A program made the position numbers and the translations under genes. The notes below the pieces were generated by a model. It ran no database searches. It was given only the letters and a program-made list of their open reading frames with translations, and was not told the origin of the DNA. This document shows, one piece after another, positions 29,700 to 53,427 of a stretch of DNA of 64,000 nucleotides. The DNA lies in assembly GCA_000091205.1 (NCBI GenBank), contig AP006497.2; one strand, 5' to 3'. Numbering within the stretch: position 1 is the first letter of the stretch; every line of letters starts with the position of its first letter. The stretch is from Cyanidioschyzon merolae. Lineage: Eukaryota.

Positions 29700-29850
29700 C
29701 TGACTTCCAGAATGCTATCGATTTCAGTTTCTGCTTGTACACTTCGAGCATCAGACGCTACCTCACAAGCTTCGATCGCGTCAGCTCTGCAGGTTTCCTC
29801 TTCAATACTCCACATTTCCTGATATTGATGGTAGCGGGAAGTCTTGGCAC
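29700..29850 (-). pseudogene. Second decayed relic of the TnpB/Fanzor-like family (RuvC-III tail)
   Basis: Minus-strand translation ...TDVVRVPRLPATINIRKCGVLKRKPAELTRSKLVR*RLMLEVYKQKLKSIAFWKS aligns with NRDLNAAINIRRSAVMGKRPPELTGENFVGQRLMVELYRMKMKPVVGGQS of the full copies. There is an in-frame stop, an upstream TAA, and the RD of the motif is lost. Confidence 0.45.
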
Positions 29851-30478
29851 ACGAACGACATCCGTTTATTGCCGCTGTTTGAACACATTAATCCAAGGTT
29901 CCTCGAACTCGTGCCCCGTTTACCACGAAACTCTCGTCGTCGTCTCGACGTGCGAACACTTTTTCTCGCCCATAGCCGCTATGTTTCTTCTCCTTCGTCA
30001 TTTGCGCTTCTTCGCTCGATGATAGGCAACAAGCGGATTTTTCTTTTTTTCAGGCACACGGCGACACCAAGCCCGCAGGCTCTCCGCCTTCCATGCCCAC
30101 ACCGTCGCCTTGGGTTCTGTACTTTAGAGACTTAGCGCACTTGGAACGCTTCTCCTATAAATTGCGAGAAAGCGTTGCAACGCAGGCATCCACGCGCGTG
30201 GAACCCAGCCGTGCTGAAATCGAGTGTTGCGCGTGACGGCGAACGCACGCCATGCGATGCTGCTGCTGCTGCTGCTGCACCGGTAATCTCGTACGCGACG
30301 CTAGTTTCTACGAACCAACGCGATATTCTGCTGCGCTGTTGGTTTTGGTTGCAGTTTCGTTACGTATTTTTGAGCTAGATCGAGTTTGGTTGCACCTGAA
30401 CCTCACGTCGTGATACCCTGAGCGCCGTCCGTGGTGTCCTAGGGAGAGGCCTCTCGGATTCCGTGGCTTTCACACGCC

Positions 30479-33816: not shown

Positions 33817-36800
33817 TCAGAAATCGACACCTTCAATACGGTCTTCGATTTCGCGGTACAGATCCCGCAAGCGTTCGATATTCTCCTCGGAGGTTTCCCA
33901 GTAGCCACGGCCGTGTGCCTCCAGCATCGTTGTCACCATAGAGCGGAAGCTGTTGGGATTCGAGTCCATGAGCTTCTTCCGCATGGCCTCGTCGACAAAG
34001 AAGGTCTGGTTGGCGTTCTCATAGACCCAGTTGTCGACAGCGTCCGAGGTCACCGAGAACGCCATGGTGTTCCGCAAACGCTTGGAAAGTTCTCGCACAC
34101 CTTCGTAACCAGAGTTCACGAGTCCGTCGATCCACTTGGGATTCAGCAGTTTGGTCCGGCTATCGAGACGAATGGTCTCGTCGAGGCTGCGCACGGCAAC
34201 GTTCGCCGTCGTCGAGTCCGCGATATACGAGCGGGGCTTGCGCTTGTCACCCCGAAGGGCGGCAACCCACTTCTCGTTTGCGCCATCTGCATAATTCGAG
34301 ACGTCCGTCAAGGAGATCTCAGACGAATCCAGATTCTGCATCGTGACCTCGACGGTTTTGAGCGCCCGCTCGAAGCGCTGCCGCGCGGGAATCATGGCCC
34401 CCGGGCGATCACTATCGTAGGCGAAGGATTTGCGAGAGAGGTACTGTTCCTGGAGCTGCTGTTCATCGGTCCATCCTCCATTTTCAATGGCAATGCCAAC
34501 GTTCGCAGAATAACTGCCCGATGCATTCGAAAACACACGCGTTGCTGCCTCCCGTACACTGATGTTCTCCTCGGCTGCCTGCTCCAGGGCGTGCTTGCGC
34601 ACGTAGTTCATCTCGGGCGGTTCATCAGCCTCTGCTGCCATCTTGATCGCTTGGTCCATCAGCGCCATCTGGTTGATCAACAGATCGCGAAAGATGCCGC
34701 TAACCGTGACGACCACATCGATTCGTGGGCGTCCCAGCTCCGAGAGCGACACCAGCTCCACCCGGTTGACTCGTCCCGATGCGTCCGGCACCGGACGTGC
34801 CCCAATGAGCCACAGCACCTGGGCAATGCTCTGGCCAAACGACTTGATCGCCTCTGTGCCATAAAGTACCAGCGATACCGTCTCTGGCATTTGACCTTGG
34901 TTCGCGGCTGCTTCCCGCTCGAGCAGGCGCTCTACGACGACTTTGGCTTCGGCGAAGGCCGAACTCGTCGGAATCGACTGCGGATCCAGCGCGTGAATGT
35001 TCTTGCCGGTTGGGACGACGGCGGGGTTCCGGATGGGATCTCCCCCCGGACCCGGTTCGATGTAACGTCCTTGGAGTGCCTGCATCAGCGAACCGAGCTC
35101 GTTATCCTTAATGATCTGCTCTAGGCAGACCTCAAGGTACTCAAAGAGCGGCTTCAGGTCTCGTGCTGAGCACTGGGGAAAGCCGCTCTCCTCGAGCGCC
35201 ACCAGATACGTCGGTTTGATCGCTTCGGACAGGAACGATACCATCACGCGATCAATGCGTCCATCCTTGTTGACTGACTTGGAGACAACCCGCTCAACAG
35301 CGTTGCGGCACGCACGCTGAATGCGATCCAACAGCTCGACATCGTCTAGCGCTGTTGAGCGGTACAACTGCTCAATATCCCGATCAACAGACTCGGCTAC
35401 AATACGGGGCAAGGCCTTGAGTCCTTTCTCCGGCCGATCGACACCGGCGATATTCACGAGTGTTGCTACCGCCTCCGCCGCAGTCGGTGGTTTGCCTATC
35501 GTATGCAGCCCGATCGGCAACAAACGAGCTTCTATCTCCATGAGACGGGCGTAGATCGATCCAATAACCTGGTCCCGCTCTTGACGCGTGAGTTGATCGA
35601 ATCCGTCTACGGGCAAGTTGGGAATGTCTCGGTCGAGGTTGCACTGTCGAGCGGTTGCGACGATCGCTGCGCACAGTGCAGCAGCTCTGGACTCATTCGC
35701 ACGCAGTTCCTGGTACTCCCGGATAAGCGATTGACACTCTTTGAGTTCCTTGTAGAGGCCGGCGTTCTCTGCAGGCGGTGTAAGGTAGGAGATGATTCCG
35801 GCGTAGGAGCGTCGCTTCGCTATGGTTGCCTCCGAGGGATTATTCGCGGCATAATAGTAGAGGTTGGGTAGACCCCCGATGAGAAGGTCGGGGTAGCAAT
35901 CTCCACTCATGCCGACCTGTTTGCCCGGCATAAATTCCAGACTTCCATGCGTTCCAAAATGAATCACCGCATTCGCGTCGAAAATCTTCTGCAACCACGT
36001 ATAGCAGGCTGCGAATCCATGATGCGGCGATGCAGACTTGGAGAACAGCAGCCGCATAGGGTCGCCTTCGTACCCGAAACTTGGTTGCACGACCACGGCG
36101 ACATTTCCGAACTGTGCACCGTAGACCAGCAGATTTGTGCCGTCGGTGTTCAGGGTACCGGGAGGCGGACCCCAGTGCTCCTGCAATGAACGCTGATACT
36201 CACATAGACGTTCGTATTCGGATACAGGCATTCGATAGAGCACGTTGAGTTCAGGCGAGCTGATTTTGGCCTCGCGATCGTGCAGTACGCGCTCCATCAA
36301 CGCATCAACAGTCTCGGGAATATCACCGACGGTATAACCATCCAGCTTCATTGCCTGGAGGACCTTGTGGATCGAGCCGAACACGTCCAGATAGGCCGCG
36401 GTACCGACATTGCCCTTGTCTGGTGGAAACGAGAACACGACGACTGCAACCTTCTTCTCGCGGTTCTTCATGCGTCCAAGTTGGGCCCACTTCAGCGCTC
36501 GTGACGCCAGCAAATGAATGCGATCGTGCAGTGGAATACTCCGCCCTGTGAGTCCGTCTCGCCCCGCATAGATGAGCGGCTCGATCGCGCCGTCCAGCTC
36601 AGGCAGACTAACCTGTAATGCAGTCTGAATCGGATGCAGTCCGAGCTCGCTTCGCTTCCACTCATCAAATGTCTGGAATACAAGCGGCAGCGAGCAAATG
36701 TATGGGCGATTCAGGGCTTTGAGGGCTGCAACTGCGCGCGGATGGTCCTGTTTGGCGGGACCCCCAACCAGCGCAAATCCCGTAAGCGACACAACGACGT

Positions 36801-38091
36801 CGACCAGGGGCACTGCTGTATTCAGCGCATAAAAGAAACGGTTCACTGGCTCGCTGAAATCCAGGGCTCCCGAGAAAATCGGGATTACTTTCGCTCCACG
36901 GGCCTCCAGTTCCTGGATGAACGACACATAGTGACAATCATCTTTGGTGACCAGATGAGAGCGCTGCAGTACGATGCCGATGGTGGGCGCATCATTCGCA
37001 AGCCTTGCTCGCGGAGCGTGCTCCTTGTCGTACCAACGTATGTACTCGGTGACGTCCTCAAACATCTTGGGTGCCACAGGATGCCAGATTCCTGCATCCG
37101 GAAACAGGACCGGATCCTTCACTTCAAACTGGAAGCTCTGAACATCCTGAACGTACTTGGATGCAACCATTAAGATCATGTTTTCGAGGTTCTCTACAGT
37201 GCCCCCGAGCCAGTACTGAAAAGAGAGCATAAACGATCGCGCATCCTGAGCCTTGTCGCTCGGCAAGTACTTAAGCACCTTTGGCAGAGTGCGCAGCAAG
37301 CGAAGCATTTGGGACTCGAAGTCTGCACCCTGTTGTTCTCGCCGTTTCTTCATGATCTGCCCGATGAACGATGTCGTAGACTGTCCAGTCTGGTTCAGTT
37401 GGCCCATACTAAAAGCCCCGAGTTTGTTCAGTTTCATCACCGGAGGTAAGGACGGAAACACGACGCATGCATCGAGACGATCTCTTACAGGCGCGACGGC
37501 GGCGACGACCTTGTCGGCAAGCTCTTGGACAAAAATCAGAGATCCGATGAAAATGTTCGCATCCGCAATATCGCGCTTGAAGGCGTTGTAGTTGGCCTCG
37601 TTTCGAAGCTCCTCCAGGAGATAGCCACTCAGTTCCACCGCCATGTGCTCCTGTTTCGCGTTGATCTTTCGAACCGCAGCCGTCAGCGTCGACTGGTACT
37701 GCGACTCCAACACGACATATACAATTTTGACCAGTTTCCGTCCTTCTAGCACTGGAGGTACAATGTGCCTGTCCTCTGGCTTCGACGCCGTAAACAGGCC
37801 GCCTGGCGCTCCGGCCAGAATGCCCGTACCGTCGTCATTCACACCGTTTCCACCAGCGTTCCAGTTCACTGCAGCACCCGTACCTTTACGGCGCTCGTTC
37901 GCAGCAGTCATCACCGACCGAGTGCGCATCTGTTGCGAGCGGCGGCTGCTCGAAGGCAGCACCAGCGGCCCCCAGGCTGAGGTCTTGCCCCACTGGTGCA
38001 GCGGCTGCACGGAACCAGCTTTCACAGCAACACCGGTTCCTAAAAAGCGCTTCTGCAACGTGGTACTCGGCGCTACAAAGCTAATCTCCAT
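33817..38091 (-). CDS. CHLH: Magnesium-chelatase subunit H (ChlH), 1424 aa, with N-terminal transit-peptide-like extension
   Basis: ATG at 38091. The blocks [70 protein letters not shown] and the overall length match ChlH/BchH rather than the shorter CobN. The N-terminus [11 protein letters not shown] is Ser/Thr-rich with an early Phe. Confidence 0.9.
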
Positions 38092-38589
38092 ATTTAACGC
38101 ACGGTGGAATGTTTACCAGACCCTACGCTGGACGGAAGAAGCGTTCAGGTTGTGAAGCGTACACTACTTCTCTTCGTCAAACGTGTCTACTATGCGCAAG
38201 CCTCTGCACACGTGACAAGATGCTACGAGTTACTATACGCTCCAGGGAACGCTGAACTAGAAAATATCAAAACCAGACGCCAAGCCACAGCAATGCTATG
38301 CGCTCGTAGCAAAAGAGCGCGATAGGTTGTAAAGTGACCCGGAGATCAGTTCGACGAGGGCATGCGGCGGTGCAGTCGCACCTGCGCGTATCAGCGACGG
38401 CAGGAACGGCGGCGACGATCAGAAAACGACCGATGCAGAAGCGTTGAGGGCCGCATTGCGCAGCGCCCCGGATGGTGACCTGAAGCGTTCCTCCGGAGGT
38501 GCAGGGAAATCAGTGGAATAAAATGGATATTTATGGATAGAGTGCGTCGGGATCTGATTCTTATCTTCACGAAACGATGACATCGGGAC

Positions 38590-40557
38590 CATGGATCCCC
38601 GAATTCGGAATCTATGATGGCTTTCGGGAAAGCGTCCACCATGAAGCACTTTCCTTCAAGTTCCATTACCCATACTTGCTTTCGGATAAACAGGTCTTTT
38701 CATAGGTTCCATCCAGCGGCGAATGGCTGCCTTGAGCACTCGCCGTAGCGCCTGCACCGCTCAAGCAGATGCTGCATAGAGAGTCAGAGGGGCTCTGCAA
38801 TACCACAGAGGGCGTCGGCTCGAGGCGTCATTCATTCAACCTCGACTCGACATTCATAATGAAACTGGGAGCCTGCAAGCGCTGCTGACAGACCTACTGT
38901 CTGCGGCAGCGCGAAGCAACAGACTAGGAGTCCACTGCGACCAGGGCGACGCCCAGACGCAGTAAAGCGGCGTCTAGACCCAGAATGAACTGCGTTGCGG
39001 AAGAGTTGAACAGGTCTCACGAAAGCACCTGCCACTGGAGGAAGCATAAAGCGCGACCCGGGCAGACTCGTCCAGGTCGCGGGACCTTCCGCCTAGGGGG
39101 TAAGCTTTTGACGGCATCGGAAACTTTCCCCTCGTTTCACGTCTATCGTAAAGCGGGGAAGGAATCGTTATCTCGTTGCAATGTAGTGGTACGTTGCTGT
39201 TATTTTGTCTATACGGCGCTCGACAGGCGCACCTGGAATATCTGGCGGTCACGAGACAAGACGGATATCTCGCCGTTGAAGGGAAACCCGATCGTGATCA
39301 TTTGCGTGTTGCTCTGACGTACATGTTGTGTTTGCGTTACAGTCGTGCCAAAGTACAGTATTTCATCTCGATGGTGTTTCGACCATCAAGCAACGATATT
39401 CCGGTAGTTTTCGCGCAGTTTGTATCAGAAGCGTTCAAAAAGCGTTCTTTTTCAAAAAAACAAAAAAGGAAAGTTTTGGAGAGGCAAGTCGTCGATCCCA
39501 GAGGCCAAGTGTCACCGGATGCCGGAAAAAGCGGAGAGCACTGCCGAGCCCAGAAGCACTGGAGAGGACCGCGACGCGGAAAGTGCATGAGAACGACTTG
39601 GTCGTTGGTGCAGACGCCGGACACACGAAGATCCGTAGCCATCGCGGTTCGCGAGTGTGCGGAAGATGGCATGGACGGTAACCTACGTCCGAAAGACATG
39701 CGGCTTTTGAGCTTCTCGAGAGCGAGATGCTATCGAGAATCTGGAATCATGAATGCAAGGACAAAAATCGAGACGTGGAACGCAGGAATGAAGGATCACG
39801 TGGAAGCTTCGAGCGATGTGACGAGCCGAGGAGCAGACTTTCAAACTTTTCTGAAATGCATGGAAGTTCGCGTCGCTGACTGGGAGGCGCTGTGGAAAGC
39901 GTATCCAAAGCCCCGGTGGGCTCGTCTGCGTATGCGTCTATACTGTGGGAAGCAGCGCGCATTCGCCAATTTTTTCAATCCACTGAACGCCTTGAAGGAG
40001 GACGAGGGTCAGAGGCTCCTAGTAGCGTACGGAGCAGGGCGCTGGATGACCCAAAACAGGATATACGCCAGCTCCAACAACAAGAACGTACAAGGAGCGC
40101 GCACGGCGTTTTGTCACCATACCGATAGATGCGTTCCGAACATCGTACACACACCATGAGCTGGGCTGCACGCTTCAGAGGGTCGAGATAGAAAAGTGCC
40201 AGCGGGGCCCTGAGCATTTAAAAAAGTACGGAGCGCCGACGGAAGAGCAAATGGAAAGGAGGGCAAAAGTGCGAGAGCTACTCGCATTAGTATATACAAC
40301 CAGTGATGGCAAGAAACGTATGGAATTCGTGAACCGAGACTTGAACGCCGCTATCAATATTCGGAGAAGTGCGGTGATGGGGAAAAGACCTCCAGAGTTG
40401 ACAGGAGAGAATTTTGTGGGGCAGCGTCTCATGGTCGAATTGTACAGAATGAAAATGAAGCCAGTTGTAGGTGGCCAGTCGAGCGAGACAGTGAGGCTTC
40501 GGCGTTTCAGTTGGAGACGTTTTGTGTAGGGCGCGTTTGCCGCCACTGCTGTATACC
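38590..40557 (+). mobile_element. Copy A of a ~1.97-kb TnpB/Fanzor-like (IS200/605-OrfB-related) element
   Basis: Near-identical to 48310-50278 at a constant offset of 9721 bp with no indels across about 1.9 kb. The edges are more diverged than the core. It encodes a RuvC-fold TnpB-like protein. No terminal inverted repeats are evident, as expected for IS200/605-type elements. Confidence 0.65.
39176..40529 (+). pseudogene. TnpB/Fanzor-like RuvC nuclease gene split across two overlapping frames (+1 shift between ~40045 and ~40105)
   Basis: Frame 1 (39176-40159) carries a RuvC-I-like AEDGMDGNL and downstream ...LLVAYGAGRW. Frame 2 (open from 40050) reads RRFVTIPIDAFRTSYTHHELGCTLQRVEIEKCQRG...MEFVNRDLNAAINIRRSAVMGKRP. 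That contains the TnpB block V.P.YTS..C, a zinc-ribbon-like region and the RuvC-III hallmark RD.NAA.NI. A frameshift (or recoding) is needed to join the two frames. Confidence 0.6.
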
Positions 40558-41175
40558 GCTGCGCCACCGTGTTCCCATGGAAGAGAAATTTCGAAAACTT
40601 GAAGACTGCGTGACTGGGAGCTTCTGCACACGAATTCGAGAGTATATCATTTGCTCTCCGATGCCTTGTTCGACGGCGTCGCGAATCTTCATGTTTCCCG
40701 TGGCGTATCGAACTGCAGCGGTAAAGATCCCAGGTATCCATTCCGAAAACCCGACCGAGAATCCTAAAACTACCTTTGAGTTCTCAAGTCCGTCTCTTTA
40801 TATTTCGAATGTCGACTTTGGAAATCACGGAATAAAACATTCAGAAAAAAATGCAAAGCCACGAACACAGTGCGAGCATCTCCCAATCCACTTGTAATCC
40901 AGGATTGGCGTGGTATCATCTGCGCGCTGTTGATGCAGCACTAGCACCAATACGCTGGTCTCTCAGGAACTCAAGTCGGTTGGGTCCTAAAAACCACCAG
41001 CGTGGGAGGAATTTTCATCTGTCCGTGCTAACCGCTTGGCTGTTTCTTTGAACCAGTGGCGGGAAGCAAGGCTCGGTTCACTAGGACGAGTCTAGCGGAG
41101 CGTTACGGTGCTGATCGAAAGGCCGTGCCGCTCTACCGCCGAGCACTCCGAGTTCATGTGGCTGGCTCTTTCGAC

Positions 41176-44100
41176 ATGAGCGCCGGTCCACGTTACAGCG
41201 ACGAGTCAGGCACGTTCTTGCTCGAAACGAGCCGTTTGGCTCGGCGCCGAAGAGCCGTCGTCGAGGAGCTGTGGAACCATCGTCTGGCGTGGCCACCAGC
41301 ACAACTGCATCACGTTTACCAGGGCACGTTTTATACGAGCCTGAATGATCTAGACGTTGCTCGAAGTGCCTTCCGCGAGTCTCACGTTCCCTTACGCGAA
41401 GCGTTGGGCACCGAAATCCAAATGCTTCTGGGTTTCGACCTTGATAGTGGAAAGTGGTGCGGCCGTATGCCTGCACCGCCTCCGTTGCCGGACAGTTTCG
41501 TGTACAAAGTGCTTTTCGAGTCCGGCTTGCCTTGGCAGGAAAGCGTGCTCGCGCTTGGGTATATCCCTTTCCAGTATGGTTTATCTGGCGATGCTACCGA
41601 TCGGTTAACCCGGTTTCGTGAAACCTCTTGGCGCAAAGCACCAAGGGCGGCACCAGCAGGCGCACCCGAACAGAGTCGTGGACGCTCGCTAAAGAACAGC
41701 TCCTTGGTGGACACTACGCAACCAGTGATAGTACCTTTGCGCTTGAGCGCCGTCCTCCTGGAGCAGGCAGTGACCTTTCTAATGACAAGCGTTTCTGGAG
41801 CTTCTTTGGAGGACCCCGACACGATCGTCGTTAGAGAACGCACGAGCGCTGTTCTCTGTGGAGATGTACAAGTTGCTTCGCAGGATGAATCGACGCCATC
41901 GTCGATACCAACATTGAAACCTCACCATGAGTTCTCAGATCGTGTACAGCAACAGACGCATCGCGCCGAACCCGCCACGGATATGGCGGTTGGAGAAAAT
42001 AGGTCCAGGAGGACAACACCTGCTTGCGTGCGTCGCATGAATGTGTGCACTGGTGAAGCGCATGCAACGGCACCTAGTAGAATCACGTCGCCTACTCGGC
42101 CGGATAGGTACCAAGCAGCGTTTGGGCATCGAGCCAAAACAGGTCGATTAGCGGCCTCATCTCATGCCAGCGCTGCTGATGCTGCTGCTTCCGCGTCTAC
42201 GAATACAGCCCCAGCAGGTACGGGACAATGCGAGCAGAATGACCTGGCGCAGCGAGAGCGGCATTTTTTGATAGGGAGACATATCGCAAGGCTTCCATCG
42301 ATGCTAGCGCGCTGTTTGCTCATTCGTCTGATTGCCACAAACCAGCTAACGCTGCCGCTGCTATGCCTTTTCCAGGGATTGGAGCTGCCGATCCTTTCGC
42401 TGAGATCGTGTCGTATGCACATCACCGACACGTGGATGCCGTTAATTGGGACTTTTGTGGGGCTCGAAGAACTCGATCTCTCGTTCTGTCATCGCATCAC
42501 TGACCAGGGTATCCGTTTCCTCGCTAGGCGTTACGGATCCGAAGAGAACACCGAGGAGCCGTCGGTGGCGTCGAGAACGCTGCGATCGCTTTCTCTCCAG
42601 GGGTGCAACCAGCTGACCAATACGGCAGTTTTACACCTGGAGGCGTTTCCGCGGCTGAAACGACTCGACGTGAGCGATTGCCCCAATATGGGGAATGCGG
42701 CGCTTCAGGTTCTCGCGGAGCGCTTTCGGCTGAGAGCACTCTCGGTTGCTCGTTGCGAGCGGGTCGGGAGCTCCAGCATAGCGGCGCTGTTACGGGGAGA
42801 AAACCACAATCGCATGGCATCTAGCAAAAGCGTACAGCTCGACCAGAAAGCACCCATCGAAGAGGTACCGTTGGAGACCAATGAATGTCAGTTAGAGTTT
42901 TTGGACGTTTCTGGATGCCCAGCTGTTGGCGAGTACGCCTTTCTTGGATCCGCAACACGCTTCAGTAATCGTATCGCTGCGAACGCTGCATCGCCGTCGA
43001 CCGGCTTGCCGCTTCGGACTCTGCGTTTACGAGGATGTACGCGGGTCAACGACACGGTTTGCGAACAAATAGGGCATCTGTTCCGAAATCTGCAGGAGCT
43101 GGACCTTTACGGGTGTGCACGCGTTACCGATCGCGGCATACTAGACTTGGTACGAAGCCTCGAAGAATCCCTCCAGGTGCTCTGCTTGGCGGAAACCCAG
43201 ATTACGGACAAGGGGCTCGCCGCATTGGCACAGCTGCGGTGTTTGCGTCGCTTGCACCTGACCCGCTGTCGACGGCTGGAGTTTGCACCAGGTGTTATGG
43301 AGATGTTCTGTACCCGAATGGCTGCGCAGGCGAGTCTGAGCGAACTCCGATTGCGCTCTCTGCCTTCGGTGAACGCCCGAGTCATCGCAGAACTGAGCGG
43401 TTTGTTTGTCGCGGGCGAGCTCAAGCATTTGAATTTGACGGACTGCCACCAGGTGAACGACGAGGCACTGCTGGCTCTGGGCGAGGCGCTGCGCGTACGC
43501 CTTATGGACGCCACGCCTCGAACGTCGTCAAGAACGGGAAACTCCTCAGCTGTCGCCACACAGCGACCTCCGCGTTGTCTCGTACAATCTTTATCGTTAC
43601 GGAATACCGGTATCCGCGATACAGGCCTAATATTCAAGGTTTTTATTGGCATGCGTCATCTGGACCTGGGCGAGTGCCCGACCCTAGAGAAACTGGATAC
43701 GCTCTTTGGCGACATTGCCGAGGCGGAGGAAGCACTTGCACGTTTCGGACGCCGTTCGATGCGCCTAGAGCGGCCTGCGGTGCCCACTGCGAACCGCACC
43801 AGTGCGCCTGCCTTCAGTGCCTACGAGGGCATCGTTTCAGGCACCTGCAGCCGTGCTTGCCGCGATTCGCATGATGACGTCGCAGACTGGCGAGGTCGCA
43901 CAAACACCAACACAGAGGATGCCGGCTGCTGGGCGCCTTGGGGCCTCGCGAACGCACGCGCCTCACAGGAAGCGGGGTTGTCCCATGGACCAAGCGCACT
44001 GCCCGTGGTCCCTCCCTGGCTGAATACGCTCGAATATCTGGACTTGTCCCATTGTCAGTCGGTTTCATTCGCAAATCTGCGTACACTGCGCTCAGAAAGT

Positions 44101-44838
44101 TTGCGAATCCTCATACTCGATCATTGTTCTGGGGTGACAAACGCATGCGTCGCCCTGCTTGCCTATCACGTACCGAATCTCCAGGAATTGAGCCTGCGCT
44201 TCACTGCCGTTGGTGACCTGGGAATTGCCGCTTTTGCGAACCGCTTCCGGCATTTGGAGAAACTGCACCTTCGAGGCCTACCCGATGTGACGCATGTTGG
44301 CATACGACGACTTGCTGCGTCTCCACTGGCGACGAAGCTCCGTGTTTTGGAGCTTGCCGAGTGTCCAGCGATCGGCGAACTTGCGCTCGCATCCCTGAAT
44401 GGCATGAAAGCGCTCGAATATCTGAGCCTCAAAGGATGCACCGAAATCAACGACGCTGCATTGCGGCAATTAGAAGACGTACCAGTTTTGACGGTTCTTA
44501 ACCTGCGGCAGTGTCCTTTAGTGAGCAGCAAACAGATTGAATTGTTGCGCAGTCGACTGCCAAGTCTTGTCGAAGTGAAATTTTCAAATGAATCCAGGGG
44601 CCTTGCGGAGCACACCGGCACGCCGAGTGCGCTTGTGGATAGCTTTCTCGCCTACGTTCATGGCGGTTCGCGAAGATCACCAACGGGTCGAAATCAGGCG
44701 CTTGCGCGGCAGCAACAAGTCGATGAGGCAGCACCGTCTCCGACTCGCATTTTTCTGGACATGTTTGACGCTTGGGAGATGGGACAGCGTTCAGCCCGAC
44801 GCCGCTGCAGCCGTAGTAGCAGCAGCGCAAACCGCTAA
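41176..44838 (+). CDS. F-box/LRR-repeat protein (FBXL/GRR1-type cysteine-containing leucine-rich repeats)
   Basis: Many LRR_cc units of the form L..L.L..C..(I/V)TD.G(I/L): LEELDLSFCHRITDQGI, LRSLSLQGCNQLTNTA, LKRLDVSDCPNMGNAAL, LQELDLYGCARVTDRGI, LRVLELAECPAIGELAL and so on. A putative F-box-like LPSMLARCLLIRL lies upstream of the repeats. The track start is GTG 41056; the first ATG is 41176. Confidence 0.65.
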   Translation: MSAGPRYSDESGTFLLETSRLARRRRAVVEELWNHRLAWPPAQLHHVYQGTFYTSLNDLDVARSAFRESHVPLREALGTEIQMLLGFDLDSGKWCGRMPAPPPLPDSFVYKVLFESGLPWQESVLALGYIPFQYGLSGDATDRLTRFRETSWRKAPRAAPAGAPEQSRGRSLKNSSLVDTTQPVIVPLRLSAVLLEQAVTFLMTSVSGASLEDPDTIVVRERTSAVLCGDVQVASQDESTPSSIPTLKPHHEFSDRVQQQTHRAEPATDMAVGENRSRRTTPACVRRMNVCTGEAHATAPSRITSPTRPDRYQAAFGHRAKTGRLAASSHASAADAAASASTNTAPAGTGQCEQNDLAQRERHFLIGRHIARLPSMLARCLLIRLIATNQLTLPLLCLFQGLELPILSLRSCRMHITDTWMPLIGTFVGLEELDLSFCHRITDQGIRFLARRYGSEENTEEPSVASRTLRSLSLQGCNQLTNTAVLHLEAFPRLKRLDVSDCPNMGNAALQVLAERFRLRALSVARCERVGSSSIAALLRGENHNRMASSKSVQLDQKAPIEEVPLETNECQLEFLDVSGCPAVGEYAFLGSATRFSNRIAANAASPSTGLPLRTLRLRGCTRVNDTVCEQIGHLFRNLQELDLYGCARVTDRGILDLVRSLEESLQVLCLAETQITDKGLAALAQLRCLRRLHLTRCRRLEFAPGVMEMFCTRMAAQASLSELRLRSLPSVNARVIAELSGLFVAGELKHLNLTDCHQVNDEALLALGEALRVRLMDATPRTSSRTGNSSAVATQRPPRCLVQSLSLRNTGIRDTGLIFKVFIGMRHLDLGECPTLEKLDTLFGDIAEAEEALARFGRRSMRLERPAVPTANRTSAPAFSAYEGIVSGTCSRACRDSHDDVADWRGRTNTNTEDAGCWAPWGLANARASQEAGLSHGPSALPVVPPWLNTLEYLDLSHCQSVSFANLRTLRSESLRILILDHCSGVTNACVALLAYHVPNLQELSLRFTAVGDLGIAAFANRFRHLEKLHLRGLPDVTHVGIRRLAASPLATKLRVLELAECPAIGELALASLNGMKALEYLSLKGCTEINDAALRQLEDVPVLTVLNLRQCPLVSSKQIELLRSRLPSLVEVKFSNESRGLAEHTGTPSALVDSFLAYVHGGSRRSPTGRNQALARQQQVDEAAPSPTRIFLDMFDAWEMGQRSARRRCSRSSSSANR

Positions 44839-45177
44839 CTTGGATCTCGTATAACGACTGCAAGTTGCCACGCTTCTGGATTCGCACATGAACGCTCCCC
44901 AAAGACCGGGTCGAATGCAGGCTACAGCGAGCGCTCGGGCACGCGGAACCGAGACGCTTTCCGTTTAGACCGTTATCACATGCGGCGACGATGCGTTCTT
45001 TCGGACGACGACGAGACCGCCATACTTGCCTCCGTCAAGCGGTGTTTTCTGGTCGCATCCGGTTCACTCGCTACTCGGCGACGTAGAGACGTCAGGTGCC
45101 GTCTCAGAGCACAGCATCCGATCGATTGATGCACCTCAAGGCACAGGGCGCCTTTGTTGCAAGCATTGCCGCCAGTA

Positions 45178-45201
45178 GCGGCGGCGGCGGCGGCGGCGGC
45201 G
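45178..45201. repeat. (GCG)8 trinucleotide repeat
   Basis: gcggcggcggcggcggcggcggcg, in the convergent 3' intergenic region. Confidence 0.9.
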
Positions 45202-45831
45202 CCTGACACGACTGCCGTGCCCTGTAGTGCCTCGCTATGTACGAATACAGCCCAGGCGCATGCCCTGTGTATGTGTGTGTGTGTACAGACCTCGGCGGAG
45301 AAGTTGCGGCGTGAAACGCTTCGGTGCACAACTGGGTCACGCTAGTGCAGAGCGAGCGTTTCTCGCATGCGAACACTGCACAGGCTGAATACAGGCGAAC
45401 AGATGGGACGCTGGGGCCTGGTTACCCGCTGGGATTCCCTCTCGCGGCTGGCAAGTTGCCCCAGTCATGTCTGGCCACTCGCTTCTCATCGCGTAAAGCG
45501 CTTTTTCGCGAGACGGCGTCGTCTGCGCATGCCGGCTACGACGCCCTGCAGCATATCACGAGGGGATCAGCGGCAGCCCGCGTCGCCGCTGTACAGCGCA
45601 TCCCAGGTCACATCAGCACCTGGAGCATTGTTTAAACGTACCGCGCTTCTCAAGCCAAGTGCGGTTTATCGCGTGCTTTCGAAGATAGGGAATGGCTCTG
45701 GAACGGAGAGCTGGTCGCTTTCCCAAATGGCGATGCAGAAACGCATATCCCTGCATCCTTGGTTCGATGCAACGCGTCCACAGAAAAACGTGCCGCAGAG
45801 GCGCGATCACCGCTACGTCATCTTTATCCAT

Positions 45832-47931
45832 TTATATACTATATCGTCCAGATTCTTCCGTGCTGCCCGATGCCTTGTGTCTGCCGTTCGCATCCGCCTC
45901 GTGTGATAACGACAGCACCGCTACCGTCTCTATATGCGGTGTGTGCGGGAACTGGTCAACCAGCGCCACTTTCTCCAGGCGATACCAAGGTGCATCTCGC
46001 AAGAGTAGGTCTAGGTCACGCGTCTGGCTCGCTGGATTACAGGACACGTATACAAGGCGGCGCGGTCGTAGTGCCGGCGGTGCACCGGCGATCGCTTTGA
46101 GCTGCCGCGGGTGCACGCCGGCACGCGGCGGGTCCATTACCAGCAGGTCCACTGGATGTTGCCGCGCCAGCGGCAAGTGTCGAAAGATGACTTGCCACAA
46201 GTTCTCTTTCTCCAGGTCCGTCACTTGAAAAACCGTGTTTGTGCGTGCATTGAGTCTGGCGTTCGTGCGGGCGTCATCGACGGCACTCGCCACGAGCTCC
46301 AGTCCCAGAACTTGCTCGGCGAAAGGTGCCAAGCAAAGCGCAATGGTGCCAGTGCCGCAGAAGAGGTCCACAACGAGCGCACCGGTGTCTTGTCTGGCCT
46401 GCGGGCTCGACACGGCAAGCTCGGCAGAAGACTCTGCAGCGGGTGACACCTGACCGACGCTCGGCTGTTCCAGGAGGCCGCTGTTCTCCAGAACAACCGC
46501 CATGAGCCGTTCAGCTTGTGCTGGATTCGTCTGAAAGAAGGAATTCGCGGAAATCTGAAAGTTGATGCCCGTCTCGGACCAGGAGCTGGTTTGGATTCGA
46601 GAGCGCACGTGGCGAAGCGGACGCAGGCACTGTTCGATGGTATCCTGGGTACCTGCCAGGCGTCGTTGGCTCTCTCCGACCGCAACTCCGGAGCGATTGC
46701 TGGTAATGTTTTGCAGCACGCAAACAAGGCCACGATTGGTCTCACCGAAAGCTTTCCACAGCGCAGCCGCAACGTCCTCCAGTGCAGCCTGCTGGTGAGC
46801 GTCTGCCGGTGGGCTCGTGACTAGGTTGACCATCACCTGCGTCTGATTGTGTCGGTCTTGAGCTGTCCGAATGACCAGGTTGCGCAGGAAACCAACGTGT
46901 TCCACGAGGTCGTAGGGCGGCAAGAGCGTCTCGGCCAGCGGTCGACAATGACGCTCGACGAAGCGAAGGATTTCGTTCGCGACGTCGATCTGAAGTGCGC
47001 AGTCCTCAATGCAGAGCACCTTATCGTAGCGTCGCGGTACGTGCAGTCCCAGCGCAAACCCAGTGCGCATGTCCTCACCGCTTTCCGGAGCTGTGTCCGT
47101 CCCGGGTCGTTTCCTACCAGAACTAACCGTGTTTTCGTCTCGCGTGGACGTGTCCCGGCCCTGACGCAGCGTGACCTTTCCGCTATCGTCTGCTGTATTC
47201 GGTTTCGGACGCCATACACGAGTTCCAAAGGTGAAATCCATCTTGTTCCGATACGCGTAGAGTCCTGTAGGCACCGTTGCTCCTACGGCCGGTAAGAACT
47301 CTACCGATGCCTCAGATGCAAGTCCATCTGTCTCCAGACGGCGGAGCAAGGCCCGATACATGTCACGAACTTGCTCCTCCTTCTCGGACAACTGTTTTGT
47401 GTAGATCAAGTTCTGAAACTTGCAGCCTCCACAACCTTCGAGGAAGTGTCGACACAGTGGCGCAGTTGCGAACATCGAGGGTGGATCTAGGCGTTCCACC
47501 ACTATCGCCTCCGCATGGTTACGTTTCCGACGAATGATGCGAGCACGCACTCGTTCTCCTGGAATGGCGTTGTGGACGAGCACCACGAATGACTCGTTCT
47601 CACTCAGTTGCAAACGACTGACGCCCATGCCAGTACCGTGCGCCAGTGACTCGACAGCGAGCTCCACCAGGAGGCCGCGCGAGGGCGACTTTTGTGACGA
47701 GGGCGCTCCAGGTCCATCGGTCGCTACCATGGTAGCGCTAGAGAGTCGCTCGCCCGCTGAAAAGTGTCGAGTTTGACGACTCCTGTGACACGGACGCTGC
47801 CAGACGCGTGCCCTGTAGATAATCGGTGAAAGCACTCGCGCAAAAGCAGGTTTTAGCGACACAGGTCTTTCGAAAAGTGAAACATACGTTCGTTCGACCA
47901 GGACAGCACCAGTGCGAATCTCTGTCCGCAT
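45832..47931 (-). CDS. TRM2/RumA-family RNA (uracil-5)-methyltransferase
   Basis: ATG at 47931. TRAM-like VLVHNAIPGERVRARIIRRK. Fe-S-type Cys cluster CRHFLEGCGGCKFQN. SAM-binding VVDLFCGTGTIALCLA. C-terminal nucleophile motif LVYVSCNPAS. Confidence 0.85.
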   Translation of the reverse strand: MRTEIRTGAVLVERTYVSLFERPVSLKPAFARVLSPIIYRARVWQRPCHRSRQTRHFSAGERLSSATMVATDGPGAPSSQKSPSRGLLVELAVESLAHGTGMGVSRLQLSENESFVVLVHNAIPGERVRARIIRRKRNHAEAIVVERLDPPSMFATAPLCRHFLEGCGGCKFQNLIYTKQLSEKEEQVRDMYRALLRRLETDGLASEASVEFLPAVGATVPTGLYAYRNKMDFTFGTRVWRPKPNTADDSGKVTLRQGRDTSTRDENTVSSGRKRPGTDTAPESGEDMRTGFALGLHVPRRYDKVLCIEDCALQIDVANEILRFVERHCRPLAETLLPPYDLVEHVGFLRNLVIRTAQDRHNQTQVMVNLVTSPPADAHQQAALEDVAAALWKAFGETNRGLVCVLQNITSNRSGVAVGESQRRLAGTQDTIEQCLRPLRHVRSRIQTSSWSETGINFQISANSFFQTNPAQAERLMAVVLENSGLLEQPSVGQVSPAAESSAELAVSSPQARQDTGALVVDLFCGTGTIALCLAPFAEQVLGLELVASAVDDARTNARLNARTNTVFQVTDLEKENLWQVIFRHLPLARQHPVDLLVMDPPRAGVHPRQLKAIAGAPPALRPRRLVYVSCNPASQTRDLDLLLRDAPWYRLEKVALVDQFPHTPHIETVAVLSLSHEADANGRHKASGSTEESGRYSI

Positions 47932-48309
47932 CCACGAGCAGTGCGAAAGGGCAAGTACTCGGAGCCTGGAAACACAGCGTCAGTGCCAGTTCGAGACTGA
48001 GCGACCTGCGTCCGTCTTGGTAGAGGTTTTCAACTTGGCAGGCTCGCGAAGCCGACTTTTCGGTTAAGGGACGCACTGTTGCTGCTCTTTAATCCTAACG
48101 AGAGCTTGCCTCTTCAGCAGAGACTACCGCGTTCCAATAGCCCCGCAGTAAAGTTCGTGAAGAGAATAGAGTCTGGTTTTTCACGCGGCTCTGCGGGGGT
48201 AGCGTCTACCGCTGGTGTTTTAAGAAAAAGCGGTACGATGTGTGGTTTTGGAGCAAAAGAGCATCGCGCAGCGTAGATATGTCCTCGATGACAGAACGTC
48301 TCCATTGAT

Positions 48310-50278
48310 CAGGGATCCCAGATTGCGGGATGGATTTCGGCAAGCGGGAAAGTGTTTATGAAACTGTACCCTACCTTCAAGTTCCATTACCCATACTTGC
48401 TTTCGGATATACAGGTCTTTTCATAGGTTCCATCCAGCGGCGAATGGCTGCCTTGAGCACTCGCCGTAGCGCCTGCACCGCTCAAGCAGATGCTGCATAG
48501 AGAGTCAGAGGGGCTCTGCAATACCACAGAGGGCGTCGGCTCGAGGCGTCATTCATTCAACCTCGACTCGAGATTCGTAATGAAACTGGGAGCCTGCAAG
48601 CGCTGCTGGCAGACCTACTGTCTGCGGCAGCGCGAAGCAACAGACTAGGAGTCCACTGCGACCAGGGCGACGCCCAGACGCAGTAAAGCGGCGTCTAGAC
48701 CCAGAATGAACTGCGTTGCGGAAGAGTTGAACAGGTCTCACGAAAGCACCTGCCACTGGAGGAAGCATAAAGCGCGACCCGGGCAGACTCGTCCAGGTCG
48801 CGGGACCTTCCGCCTAGGGGGTAAGCTTTTGACGGCATCGGAAACTTTCCCCTCGTTTCACGTCTATCGTAAAGCGGGGAAGGAATCGTTATCTCGTTGC
48901 TATGTAGTGGTACGTTGCTGTTATTTTGTCTATACGGCGCTCGACAGGCGCACCTGGAATATCTGGCGGTCACGAGACAAGACGGATATCTCGCCGTTGA
49001 AGGGAAACCCGATCGTGATCATTTGCGTGTTGCTCTGACGTACAAGTTGTGTTTGCGTTACAGTCGTGCCAAAGTACAGTGTTTCATCTCGATGGTGTTT
49101 CGACCATCAAGCAACGATATTCCGGTAGTTTTCGCGCAGTTTGTATCAGAAGCGTTCAAAAAGCGTTCTTTTTCAAAAAAACAAAAAAGGAAAGTTTTGG
49201 AGAGGCAAGTCGACGATCCCAGAGGCCAAGTGTCACCGGATGCCGGAAAAAGCGGAGAGCACTGCCGAGCCCAGAAGCACTGGAGAGGAGTGCGACGCGG
49301 AAAGTGCATGAGAACGACTTGGTCGTTGGTGCAGACGCCGGAAACACGAAGATCAGGAACCATCGCCGTGCGCGAGTGTGCGGAAGATGGCGTGGACGGT
49401 AACCTACGTCCGAAAGACATGCGGCTTTTGAGCTTCTCGAGAGCGAGATGCTATCGAGAATCTGGAATCATGAATGCAAGGACAAAAATCGAGACGTGGA
49501 ACGCAGGAATGAAGGATCACGTGGAAGCTTCGAGCGATGTGACGAGCCGAGGAGCAGACTTTCAAACTTTTCTGAAATGCATGGAAGTTCGCGTCGCTGA
49601 CTGGGAGGCGCTGTGGAAAGCGTATCCAAAGCCCCGGTGGGCTCGTCTGCGTATGCGTCTATACTGTGGGAAGCAGCGCGCATTCGCCAATTTTTTCAAT
49701 CCACTGAACGCCTTGAAGGAGGACGAGGGTCAGAGGCTCCTAGTAGCGTACGGAGCAGGGCGCTGGATGACCCAAAACAGGATATACGCCAGCTCCAACA
49801 ACAAGAACGTACAAGGAGCGCGCACGGCGTTTTGTCACCATACCGATAGATGCGTTCCGAACATCGTACACACACCATGAGCTGGGCTGCACGCTTCAGA
49901 GGGTCGAGATAGAAAAGTGCCAGCGGGGCCCTGAGCATTTAAAAAAGTACGGAGCGCCGACGGAAGAGCAAATGGAAAGGAGGGCAAAAGTGCGAGAGCT
50001 ACTCGCATTAGTATATACAACCAGTGATGGCAAGAAACGTATGGAATTCGTGAACCGAGACTTGAACGCCGCTATCAATATTCGGAGAAGTGCGGTGATG
50101 GGGAAAAGACCTCCAGAGTTGACAGGAGAGAATTTTGTGGGGCAGCGTCTCATGGTCGAATTGTACAGAATGAAAATGAAGCCAGTTGTAGGTGGCCAGT
50201 CGAGCGAGACAGTGAGGCTTCGGCGTTTCAGTTGGAGACGTTTTGTGTAGGGCGCGTTTGCCGCCACTGCTGTGCACC
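48310..50278 (+). mobile_element. Copy B of the ~1.97-kb TnpB/Fanzor-like element
   Basis: See copy A. It has the same two-frame gene structure and the same frameshift. About 12 substitutions relative to A cluster in 39176-39700/48897-49421, and most are non-synonymous. Confidence 0.65.
48897..50250 (+). pseudogene. TnpB/Fanzor-like RuvC nuclease gene, copy B, with the same +1 frame split
   Basis: The 327-aa frame-1 ORF differs from A at about 9 residues (for example GVDGNL vs GMDGNL). The frame-2 C-terminal part, including NRDLNAAINIRR, is identical to A. Confidence 0.6.
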
Positions 50279-50328
50279 GCTGACGACTGCTTTCGACTTT
50301 TGAAAGGCGTTTGCTAGCGGTGTAAGCG

Positions 50329-51222
50329 TTGGCGCACCTCCGGAGGACTGACACTGGGCCCGGGCGGTCATCTGTGCAACAGTCGCATGTTCTCGGTATT
50401 CTTCGCTCATATCTGCTTCGCCCGCTCACCACTCGTGGACGCAGTCACTGGCACGCAGTACCGAGCCGAGCACTCGTGGCCGTAGCAGAGCGCCCTGCTG
50501 GCCCTGGAGGCGTGCAAAAGCGCACCGAACGCGTCGTACCGAGTGAGGCCGCTCGACAGGAGCGCACTGCCCGTCTGCGTCGCGCCGTAGACCTTCCACA
50601 AAATCGCATTTATCCCTTTCTAGAGCATAAGGTTGCTGGCGAGGCCAAACGCAAGGACCTCCTGGCCGTTCTGGAGCAGGACTCGAGTCGCTTCGAAGAT
50701 GAACGAGCCATTCGTGACTGGGTTGAGTCACAGATTCAGGAAGCGATTCGGCAAGGGGCGTTCGAGCGGCTCCCGCGAGGGCCACTGCAGCTGCCGCAAC
50801 CACCACTCGGTGTCGACCTTGTCACGTATACCATGCATGGTCTTTTACAGCGGCACGGACTGCGACCTGTCTGGATAGAATGTATGCATGAAGTAGACGC
50901 CGAAGTGAAACGTATTCGTCTGGCTCTGGAACGAGCGTATCGAGCTCGAGTTGCTACCGCCGAGGACACGTCACCTGCGAGCACAGCACAACGAGCTGAG
51001 CGCTGGGAGGCAGCAGCGCGGGAGCTCCAGGAACAGATGCATCAAGTGAACCGACGAAATGATGCTTTTAATCTCATGAAACCCGAGCGCCTGGACACTG
51101 TTTTCCGACTGCGCATGCGTTGGGAGCACGAATTCATGCGCGTCAAGCAACGAGTGGAAAGCGAGTACTCAGCTGAACCGCGTAGCAGTTTAGCTCCGGA
51201 GGCAACGGACCCGAAAGCTTGA
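50329..51222 (+). CDS. DUF1992 (DnaJC28 C-terminal domain family) protein; start codon unresolved
   Basis: IRDWVESQIQEAIRQGAFERLPRGPLQL resembles the DUF1992 core (W.E..I.EA...G.FDNLPG.GKPL). The ORF opens at TTG 50329 immediately after a TAA. The first in-frame ATG falls only at about residue 165, downstream of the conserved core. Confidence 0.45.
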   Translation: MAHLRRTDTGPGRSSVQQSHVLGILRSYLLRPLTTRGRSHWHAVPSRALVAVAERPAGPGGVQKRTERVVPSEAARQERTARLRRAVDLPQNRIYPFLEHKVAGEAKRKDLLAVLEQDSSRFEDERAIRDWVESQIQEAIRQGAFERLPRGPLQLPQPPLGVDLVTYTMHGLLQRHGLRPVWIECMHEVDAEVKRIRLALERAYRARVATAEDTSPASTAQRAERWEAAARELQEQMHQVNRRNDAFNLMKPERLDTVFRLRMRWEHEFMRVKQRVESEYSAEPRSSLAPEATDPKA

Positions 51223-53427
51223 CGGTTTCATGGGATGTTTATGAACATACGGAGCGCCTTTACAATCGATAAAGGTCATAGCGGTCAAGTATCTAGTGGT
51301 CGTTGATACCGATGATATTTGCCATGGCGAGCATGATGATGAGAATGAGCATCTTCACGCGATGGATGTGCGATGCATCATACAGTAGATCATGCGTTCG
51401 TCTACGTTGATCCGATAACGCTCATGTCAAAATACAGTTCGATGGGATCGGGTAGACAAGTCAGGTGTACGTCCTTAAATTTCATCTCTTCCCATTGTAA
51501 TAAACACCAGTCCGTGTCGGAGTTTTTTGCAACTGCTCACTTGTCGTCTCCCTCGTACCGCTGGCTTTCAATTAGCTGGTACCTCCTAGTCCTGCAGCTC
51601 GGTCGCCAACTCTTGAGAACTGTTTACCGCAGCGTTCAGGTCCGGTATTCTGCTGCTTACTCCTGTTGTGCACCAATTTCGTGCACAGACAAAGGTTGCG
51701 ATCTAGGCCTCACCTGCCATGTTCATCGTTCCTGTGCACATTTTTGGTGCGCTCGTCACTGCTGTGACACTTAGTTGTGGTCAGGTGCTTCCGTGTGACC
51801 GCCGCTTACGCTTCTTTGCGCGTCACCCTGTGGCGTATAAACGCTTGCCTTATCGCTCAGTGCATGCCCTCTACGGATACGGAAGGCGTCCACAGATTCC
51901 CGCATCCGTTTCTGGAACTCGAGCCATTTCCTGCGATCCTGGGCTTGTCATCGTCAATGCTTTCGGCGAGTACACTGTCTGCTGCATGCGCTAGCGCACA
52001 CTGTCCCAGGCAATACAGGGCTTATGGAACGCAATGTTGCCCGTGATGAGAAAAGTACCGGAAGTAAAATCCAAGCCGGAGAACAAGTAAGGAAAATTCG
52101 GTCCGCCTGTCCGCCGTTCGTGCAAGGCGACGATGCACGCTCCACTGGAAGCAAGCGCTGCGATGCCTAAACCACGAGTCGAGCAACCCTTTCCACGCAA
52201 CTAGAAGAGATCGAAGCCTCTGTGAGCACATCTCACGGGGTGTATCATGCTGCCGTCGAATCCTGACTTGTCGATGGCCACACAGTCAGGATGATTTATC
52301 ATTCGATCTGAACTGATTTTTCGACCTGAAAAGTTACGGGTACTTTCTGCATGAGCTTATAGAAAAGGCCGTTAACCAGTGGCGTCCAGTTTATGCCTTG
52401 TCAATCAAGCCGCGCAAATAGCTACGCCCGCGAATTGCCCTGAAACAAAAAATTCGAAAACCTGAATCACGCGTGATTTCAGCATGCTTCTCGCAAGGAA
52501 ACAGGATGATTCGAGCCGTGTCCATATGCATCGGATTCTGATATCCATCATTTCACGAATCCTTGTTCGAAGGTTTCCAACATCCTTTTGTTTTCCATAA
52601 CGCTACAAACTCCAGCTGCAAATCACGAAAGCAACCCCTCGAAAATTCAACAGAAAACCGGTTTGCGCATTCCTGAACTCGTTATGGATGAACCTCGATG
52701 TCGAGACTGTACATCTAGCAACCATTTCAAACAAAAATAGTTATTCATAGACAGCGCATGTATCTCGGTAAACATCGATCACAGGGATCCGCGGCGCGCG
52801 CGCTCGCTCGCGCATCTGGCACAATCGATCCAAACCTGCACGCACGCGATGCCAGGAGCGATACTGCCCCGCGATTCGACGCAGCGGCGATGCGCGGATT
52901 CCCAAGCAATATATCTGGCAGGGGCGCGGAGCGTTGCCGGTTGAACGCCGCCTCGGTCGGTGTGCTGCGTGGCGAAAGGCGGCAGCATGCAGCGCAGCGC
53001 CGCCTGCGCAGCACGGGACACGTGTACGAACGCCTCCGCTGCGCATCCGTTTTTTCGCGTAGTGCCTGCTCTGGACGCTTGCTGTGACGCGTCATAGACC
53101 CTGGGGCTTGCTCTCTCTGTCTCTCTCTGTGTGTGCGCGCGCTTGGGTGTGCCCTTGTGCTGTACAACTGTCGCCGTTACGTAGGTGAGTTGTCAGACCG
53201 TTGGCACGCGTTTGTGCGCGCGCGAGTCAACTGGTGTCCGCACAACGTTTCGGGTGAGACGCGTAGAGGCTGCTGAGCGGACGCGTGTGTATCTGCAAAC
53301 CTGCCCTGCGTGGCGCCTAGACTCGCGGGAGACACGCGTCTGGAACGGTGATCGACGTGGTGGAAGGAACGCGTGGTGCTGGTGCGTGAAGCTTGCGTGT
53401 TTTTCACGAGCTGCACCTGCGTGCGGA

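Follow-up and report, generated by a model that had tools for sequence, protein, structure and literature searches.

CMe-1A is the sole Fanzor1 family listed for Cyanidioschyzon merolae (Bao & Jurka 2013, Mob DNA 4:12; PMC3627910). The description gives some 150 copies, which share ~80% of their sequence with a consensus of ~3 kb and have no terminal inverted repeats (TIRs); its target site duplications (TSDs) were left undetermined, its class was given as unknown by the authors, and its 5' 635 bp are common to TE-N2_CMe (PMC3627910). The sequences in the supplement comprise a CMe-1A consensus of 3,169 bp and a CMe-1 protein of 734 aa (PMC3627910). On the protein side, comparison is possible with SpuFz1 from Spizellomyces punctatus (PDB 8GKH, 9CEU; Saito et al. 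2023, PMC10432273) and with TnpB of the IS200/IS605 elements, and the omegaRNAs of Fanzor and TnpB are transcribed from the right end of the transposon and may overlap the stop codon (PMC10432273). Here, two near-identical repeats in a stretch of 64,000 nucleotides of C. merolae 10D nuclear DNA (contig AP006497.2, GenBank assembly GCA_000091205.1; called the window in the following) are compared with these systems. In the original prediction, made from the letters of the window, the repeats were seen as a Fanzor/OMEGA-type family of RNA-guided nuclease transposons that may be undescribed in its host. Both repeats are deletion derivatives of CMe-1A, a family already published in 2013. We consider it very probable that they represent non-autonomous, internally deleted and dead copies, which were inserted long ago and whose interiors have been gene-converted.

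Two internally deleted copies of CMe-1A

The published CMe-1A consensus was aligned to the window by blastn. It covers both repeats and leaves the same internal part unmatched in each of them:

38565-40573, + strand: copy 1, an internally deleted CMe-1A with a degenerate right end
38569-39569, + strand: copy 1, consensus 6-1000, 79.2% identity
39571-40573, + strand: copy 1, consensus 2154-3155, 84.9% identity
48286-50321, + strand: copy 2, the identical deletion derivative, complete from the left end to the terminal hairpin (hairpin to 50320)
48286-49289, + strand: copy 2, consensus 1-999, 79.6% identity
49291-50309, + strand: copy 2, consensus 2153-3169, 84.9% identity
38653-40562, + strand: tract of high, ungapped identity common with 48374-50283, a probable gene-conversion tract

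The end-to-end match to the consensus at 79-85% identity fits the published decay level of about 80%, and the copies were therefore assigned to CMe-1A. They come from the same host, resemble the consensus in this range from its first to its last base, contain remnants of the same protein and are likewise devoid of TIRs. Inverted repeats of at least 30 nt were not found in 36000-53000, and alignments of left with right ends revealed no mutual complementarity, in agreement with the description of CMe-1A. The window copies differ from the published element by their size of 2.0 kb, the lack of consensus positions ~1000-2153 and their mutual identity of 99% over 1,910 bp; the full-length structure of about 3 kb with an open reading frame (ORF) for a 734-aa Fanzor1 protein is present in neither of them. 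The supposedly undescribed family is thus CMe-1A with its protein CMe-1, the consensus of which aligns to both copies (PMC3627910).

The predicted near-identity of the copies, without indels and with a constant spacing of 9,721 bp, holds for 38653-40562 versus 48374-50283. This ungapped direct repeat of ~99% identity at a constant offset is beyond chance; it measures 1,910 bp and not the 1.97 kb given before. The near-identity does not extend to the first 63 bp claimed, because at the repeat offset only 12-15 of 50 bases agree between 38590-38652 and 48310-48372. In each copy these bases are nevertheless part of CMe-1A, as they match the left end of the family. The mismatches are spread unevenly over the tract: all 17 that occur up to 40552 are located in 38653-39671 (1,019 bp), none is found in 39672-40552 (881 bp), two more follow at 40553-40554, and there is divergence beyond.

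The state of the coding region was judged from three-frame translation, the list of indels against the consensus and the alignment with relatives, and all lesions were scored against the ORF of the consensus, the ATG of which is located at position 906. In copy 1 the following features were recognised:

39476-39478, + strand: former Fanzor1 start codon, ATG changed to TTG in both copies (consensus GTTATGGAAAAGG, window GTTTTGGAGAGGC)
39526, + strand: frameshift 1, a 1-nt deletion (consensus alignment; frame change in tblastn with the relative P0064)
39569-39571, + strand (49289-49291 in copy 2): junction of a 1,153-bp deletion, by which consensus ~1000-2153 was lost
39601-39633, + strand: RuvC-I remnant VVGADAGHTKI with the Asp codon at 39613-39615; the DPG of the family is DAG here
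39633, + strand: frameshift 2, a 1-nt insertion directly past RuvC-I (indel list)
39634-40056, + strand: central RuvC/helical region AEDGMDGNL...LLVAYGAGRW in the second frame (three-frame translation, relatives)
40057, + strand: frameshift 3, a 1-nt insertion (indel list)
40122-40145, + strand: RuvC-II PIDAFRTS with Glu changed to Ala (GAG to GCG, 40131-40133); consensus and relatives have VDEFRTS
40332-40367, + strand: RuvC-III NRDLNAAINIRR with the Asp codon at 40338-40340
40527-40529, + strand: stop codon of the C-terminal frame, at the same position as the consensus stop (after …RRFV)

The 1,153-bp deletion takes residues ~32-416 of the 734-aa CMe-1 protein. Among the related loci that were fetched, its junction is spanned only by L002, which is the same locus from a 99%-identical strain. 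The catalytic triad does not occur in one frame, since the RuvC-I Asp lies in another frame and the RuvC-II Glu is replaced by Ala, leaving the RuvC-III Asp as the residue that is kept. With the start codon changed, residues ~32-416 gone, three frameshifts and Ala in RuvC-II, no RNA-guided nuclease can be produced from the copies, which are pseudogenes. A single frame correction, as proposed before, cannot repair this set of lesions. Rescue of the ORF via introns or programmed frameshifting was considered as well and rejected, because it would have to make good not only the three indels but also the start loss, the 1.15-kb deletion and the exchange of Glu for Ala. The C-terminal peptide on which the original prediction was built (RRFVTIPIDAFRTSYTHHELGC...KRMEFVNRDLNAAINIRRSAVMGKRP) is indeed found in frame; however, it can only loosely be said that each repeat encodes a protein, given that the homologous reading spans three frames and the start codon is gone. 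The segment AEDG(M/V)DGNL had been mistaken for RuvC-I, which is GADAG within 39601-39633, in the other frame, and corresponds to G.DPG of the consensus.

Decay is usual in the CMe-1 family, judged from related loci in metagenomes, of which 3 out of 72 have kept an ORF of at least 600 aa with RuvC-III. The relative P0064 (562 aa) from a Joint Genome Institute (JGI) metagenome, belonging to a related alga, is an independent deletion derivative without RuvC-I that is still called as one ORF; in its RuvC-II the Glu is replaced by Met (IDMFRTS). Met in P0064 and Ala in the window at the same position mean that the catalytic Glu has been lost more than once in the family. Furthermore, the metagenome relatives P0019, P0004, P0002 and P0024 (loci L001, L015, L018 and others) carry about 2-6 tandem acidic repeats of 25 residues directly before G.DPG, with the unit ..KHEEKKEA.PATQEV.DND.VVD.., of which one is present in the C. 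merolae consensus. The deletion in the window copies ends within this acidic-repeat region.

Fanzor1 relationship of the CMe-1 family

The frame-corrected translation has more than 120 relatives with 55-85% identity, mostly from JGI metagenomes, and the full-length ones comprise 600-750 aa. The family motifs read G.DPG..NI for RuvC-I, VDEFRT for RuvC-II and NRD(F/L)NAA.NIRR for RuvC-III; D398 and E569 are found in all of 122 full-length relatives, and D636 in nearly all of them. The single frame-corrected remnant gave no match in a phmmer search against the PDB sequences, and a family profile was therefore needed. The profile of the 122 full-length relatives matched exclusively Fanzor1 chains in the PDB (PpFz1, E = 3.5e-19; SpuFz1, E = 1.1e-11; GtFz1, E = 0.007), with all three RuvC motifs aligned. 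For the intact relative P0081 (676 aa), AlphaFold2 yielded a model with a mean confidence (predicted local distance difference test, pLDDT) of 91.6 and a predicted template-modelling (TM) score (pTM) of 0.89. Searched with Foldseek, it found SpuFz, PpFz and GtFz as top matches (E 1e-17 to 1e-15), the best being SpuFz 9ceu (E=1.6e-17, TM 0.65/0.71), whereas Cas12f and other Cas12 proteins matched much more weakly (E ~1e-4; TM 0.2-0.3 for Cas12f). By sequence profile and predicted fold, the intact relatives of the encoded protein are best classified as Fanzor1.

These results bear out the predicted origin from a TnpB/Fanzor-type RuvC nuclease. Likewise, NRDLNAAINIRR was correctly recognised as RuvC-III: it falls on the invariant RD.NAA column of the relatives (n=122) and, when PpFz1 and SpuFz1 are aligned, on their RuvC-III region. 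The profile and fold searches proposed before gave strongly positive results with intact relatives, the family profile matching Fanzor1; in Pfam, OrfB_IS605 was not found and PF07282 stayed below its cut-off. In the Pfam scan of the remnant, PF07282 was the sole match, at 16.5 bits versus a cut-off of 26.3, and covered 11 residues over RD.NAA.NI; scans of eight relatives yielded only sub-threshold PF07282 matches, and the precomputed label PF26935 on relatives stands for DUF8286. The structure search with an intact relative retrieved Fanzor1 folds, and at the family level neither a lack of profile and structural matches nor a position of RD.NAA.NI outside RuvC-III, which had been named as grounds for giving up the nuclease assignment, was observed.

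The comparison with SpuFz1 can be specified further. The intact relatives share its whole fold and the motifs DP(G/N), DE(F/Y)(R/K)TS and NRD for RuvC-I, II and III, but only ~15% of the sequence is identical. The CMe-1 clade has HH..C and LLWC in place of the zinc-ribbon C..C and C....C, and it is represented here by sequences and a predicted fold, while the window copies are pseudogenes. The clade thus lacks both CxxC pairs of the usual TnpB/Fanzor zinc ribbon between RuvC-II and RuvC-III, with HH..(G)C and LLWC conserved at the aligned positions; its zinc site may have degenerated or may be of another construction. With prokaryotic TnpB of IS200/IS605 elements (for example ISDra2) and with Cas12f, the family has in common the RuvC nuclease superfamily, as indicated by the weak PF07282 match and the distant Cas12f folds.

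Element ends, terminal hairpin and genomic setting

Beyond the common tract, the two copies are much less alike. Two features at the element ends are of importance here:

38565-38652, + strand: left-end-proximal segment of copy 1, ~76% identical to consensus 6-90 and apparently not homogenised with copy 2 (48286-48373)
50276-50320, + strand: 3'-terminal hairpin of copy 2, right end of the family (minimum free energy -18 to -22 kcal/mol, z = -3.8)

Over the first 85 bp, each copy is ~76% identical to the consensus, yet in a gapped alignment the left-end-proximal segments of copy 1 and copy 2 show 58% identity to each other, and the jump from 58% to 99% at 38653 is abrupt. For copy 1, the left ends of L020/L033 are the best matches (90% identity over 38587-38649), and the left end of copy 2 is best matched by other loci. 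The right flanking element ends of the two copies are 50% alike, with identities to the consensus of 70% for copy 1 and 80% for copy 2. From these patterns we infer two old and independent CMe-1A insertions, each into a divergent intergenic region. Ectopic gene conversion, acting over the 9.7 kb that separate the two sites, would recently have homogenised their interiors. The ~99% identity of the 1,910-bp interiors next to ~58% in the first 85 bp would then be due to the recent date of this homogenisation. Copy 2 has kept the terminal hairpin, and copy 1 has lost it.

Some further observations concern the ends and the unit between the copies. In L020, L023, L031, L071 and other loci, as well as at 48273-48286 of the window, the left end is preceded by ..GAT and a T-rich run (TTTTTTTTC / TTTGTTTCC), and the first base of the published CMe-1A (CGATGACAAAACG) is downstream of this run. 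Hence, the published consensus may begin ~12-15 nt downstream of the true left end of CMe-1A, or the element may prefer T-rich targets. Moreover, the metagenome contig L077 (JGI 3300050387, 9,846 bp) contains the 9,721-bp inter-repeat unit in circularly permuted form, 44313-50282 being followed, via the repeat, by 40562-44435. The simplest explanation is an assembler path through the collapsed repeat and not circular DNA, although the contig could also represent a real circle or a tandem duplication that arose by recombination between the copies.

The right ends of 71 related loci fetched from metagenomes share the consensus ...CCACTACTGTACACCGCTGG-CGTCGTTCGA-CTT-TCGAACGGCG-TT, after which ~10 variable bases pair with upstream bases, so that the terminus folds into a hairpin with up to 18 bp. 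The published CMe-1A consensus stops inside this hairpin (...GAAAGGCG), with the complementary 3' arm ~12-15 nt beyond. When z-scores were computed against dinucleotide shuffles, 23 of 47 non-redundant right ends folded with z < -2, compared with none of the 47 upstream control segments; folding was not seen for 40555-40600, the counterpart in copy 1 (z = +0.95). From 12 right ends a covariance model was derived, which gave 49 matches and in the window detected only 50276-50320 (E=2.4e-6). On the alignment obtained in this way, the covariation score of 0.155 exceeds that of shuffled alignments (0.135 +/- 0.010; 8 of 500 reach it) and of slid controls (0.03-0.09), and double changes occur at 8 pairs of the hairpin. 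Several pairs are mostly G-U, and these frequent G-U pairs make the structure specific for the sense strand. Altogether, a conserved terminal hairpin structure has moderate support from the aligned sequences.

By analogy, the hairpin is a candidate for the 3' stem of an omegaRNA scaffold, and a structured RNA region that overlaps the stop codon, as described for Fanzor omegaRNAs (PMC10432273), is plausible at the right end of CMe-1. If the intact family works like SpuFz1 and TnpB, transcription of the 3' end of the element would yield an omegaRNA to which the Fanzor1 protein binds. The transcript would run across the stop codon as far as the conserved, strand-specific hairpin, with the guide provided by the adjacent flank.

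The architecture of the ends also resembles other element classes. Like IS200/IS605 elements, CMe-1A is without TIRs and apparently without TSDs, and its right end carries a hairpin in subterminal or terminal position, but its host is a eukaryotic nucleus. Membership in the IS200/IS605 TnpB class was rejected on the grounds that PF07282 stayed below its cut-off, OrfB_IS605 was not found and no transposase (TnpA) ORF exists in or adjoining the elements. Helitrons have a 3' hairpin that precedes a conserved CTRR terminus, their autonomous copies contain a Rep/helicase gene, and in Chlamydomonas Fanzor1 rides on Helitrons. For CMe-1A this class was not supported either, because the sequences diverge directly past the hairpin without CTRR (46 non-redundant right ends) and no Rep/Hel ORF is present in the full-length loci, to which this check was confined.

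The assignment of the window to the C. merolae 10D nucleus goes along with exact matches of neighbouring genes to proteins of this strain:

33817-38091, - strand: magnesium chelatase H subunit (ChlH), 1,424 aa, identical to BAM81565
45832-47931, - strand: RNA methyltransferase, 699 aa, identical to BAM81567

The accessions BAM81565 and BAM81567 belong to a consecutive numbering with the gene of a leucine-rich repeat (LRR) protein in between. This accession run of ChlH, LRR protein and RNA methyltransferase suggests that the public annotation contains no gene in either repeat. Copy 1 occupies most of the spacer 38091-41056 between the divergent genes for ChlH and the LRR protein, and copy 2 most of the spacer 47931-50329 between the divergent genes for the RNA methyltransferase and a DJC28-domain protein.

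The genome had been regarded as transposon-poor, which does not apply to CMe-1A: in the window alone there are at least five further fragments derived from it, which are older and 68-77% identical to the consensus (blastn):

17480-17677, + strand: older remnant, consensus 60-255
17775-18043, - strand: older remnant, consensus 2737-3008
29678-29909, - strand: older remnant, consensus 2849-3085
30038-30171, - strand: older remnant, consensus 840-969
63557-63719, + strand: 5' fragment, consensus 96-255, from the part shared with TE-N2_CMe

The pair at 29678-30171 resembles another internally deleted CMe-1A copy. In addition, 89 bp at 60672-60760 (- strand) are 82% identical to L001 4402-4484, a segment just upstream of a CMe-1A left end. 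It recurs in ~10 other loci and possibly belongs to a small repeat family that adjoins CMe-1A left ends.

Competing explanations and meaning for the family

How the two copies became so similar, and whether they still do something, can be explained in different ways. An active, undescribed Fanzor/OMEGA nuclease transposon that needs one frame correction was suggested by the intact RuvC-III, and it is true that the family belongs to Fanzor1 and that 99% identity between the copies could point to recent activity. Such an element is nevertheless extremely improbable in view of the TTG start, the deletion of residues ~32-416, the three 1-nt frameshifts and the Ala in RuvC-II; moreover, left and right ends differ between the copies, unlike those of products from one transposition burst, and the family has been in print since 2013. 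The identical lesions can more easily be reconciled with a recent duplication, in which a second site received, or recombined with, a 1.9-kb piece of one deletion derivative, or in which a recent transposition was followed by later changes of the ends. The deletion and the frameshifts are common to both copies and the last 881 bp of the tract are identical, as such an event would predict. However, both copies have CMe-1A ends outside the tract that are ~76% identical to the consensus and belong to different sublineages, and ends cannot drop to 58% identity while the interior holds 99%. The presence of recognisable ends of different sublineages means that CMe-1A was already present at both sites, and replacement of an interior between two such sites is gene conversion. 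We therefore regard a recent duplication as unlikely, though clearly less so than an active element.

It might also be asked whether the remnants are retained for the benefit of the host, be it as promoter or insulator or as source of a hairpin-ended non-coding RNA acting in trans for intact Fanzor1 copies. Both copies are situated between divergently transcribed genes, a well-folding terminal hairpin is kept in copy 2, and the loci are 99% conserved in several C. merolae-like metagenome contigs. These contigs are, however, 99% identical throughout, so that the conservation is uninformative on selection; the syntenic region of Cyanidiococcus is without the element, and the hairpin was lost from copy 1. 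Retention for host use thus appears very unlikely.

The interpretation of the repeats as old, gene-converted relics of a Fanzor1 element with a functional 3' hairpin also has its weak points. The evidence on the fold comes from P0081, which is 49% identical to the window remnant, and not from the window sequence. For gene conversion, the evidence is the identity pattern as such. All C. merolae-like contigs (L002, L075-L078) have both copies with 99% identity, which leaves no unconverted outgroup, and a search for an empty site led to the syntenic region of Cyanidiococcus yangmingshanensis (L074), which has no Fanzor remnant and the intergenic DNA of which is unalignable. Regarding the hairpin, the covariation is modest and of a size that, according to the tool, related sequences without structure can reach. 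Four internal helices in the 3' 150 nt (AGUAGU/ACUACU, CCGGUC/GACNGG, CGUCU/AGACG and GGCG/CGCC) are complementary in the consensus but display no covariation beyond shuffles, RNAalifold found no meaningful structure in the whole 3' alignment (333 columns), and the window has no Rfam match at the gathering threshold. The hairpin could, finally, act at the DNA level in transposition.

Among the more speculative ideas, the hairpin might indicate where a CMe-1 omegaRNA ends next to its guide, with a variable outer stem located beyond the published consensus, or alternatively it might be an HUH-like signal for single-strand mobilisation. Argued from analogy, this proposal is a long shot, somewhat less probable than the duplication discussed above.

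The discovery value of the locus itself is small, as the CMe-1A family, its host, copy number and Fanzor1 protein were all published in 2013 and the two copies are dead. It rather serves as a calibration case, in which a perfect RuvC-III and a 99% repeat mimicked an active, new RNA-guided nuclease transposon. The only new details are the likely gene conversion between the copies and the better-defined 3'-terminal hairpin. The former would be evidence that, in a very compact genome, transposon relics separated by 9.7 kb have undergone ectopic gene conversion. With the latter, the right end of CMe-1A can be redefined as a long, covarying and strand-specific hairpin, which offers a starting point toward a thermo-acidophile Fanzor1 omegaRNA. 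Cyanidioschyzon-like hosts grow at ~42-45 °C and pH 1-2. Should the omegaRNA reading be true, active RNA-guided nucleases would be encoded by those few CMe-1 genes that are intact in Cyanidioschyzon-like algae, and decayed copies that keep the hairpin, for example copy 2, could supply guide RNAs in trans. Should the HUH-like alternative be true instead, the hairpin, in combination with missing TIRs and TSDs, could point to single-strand mobilisation of an element the class of which has never been classified.

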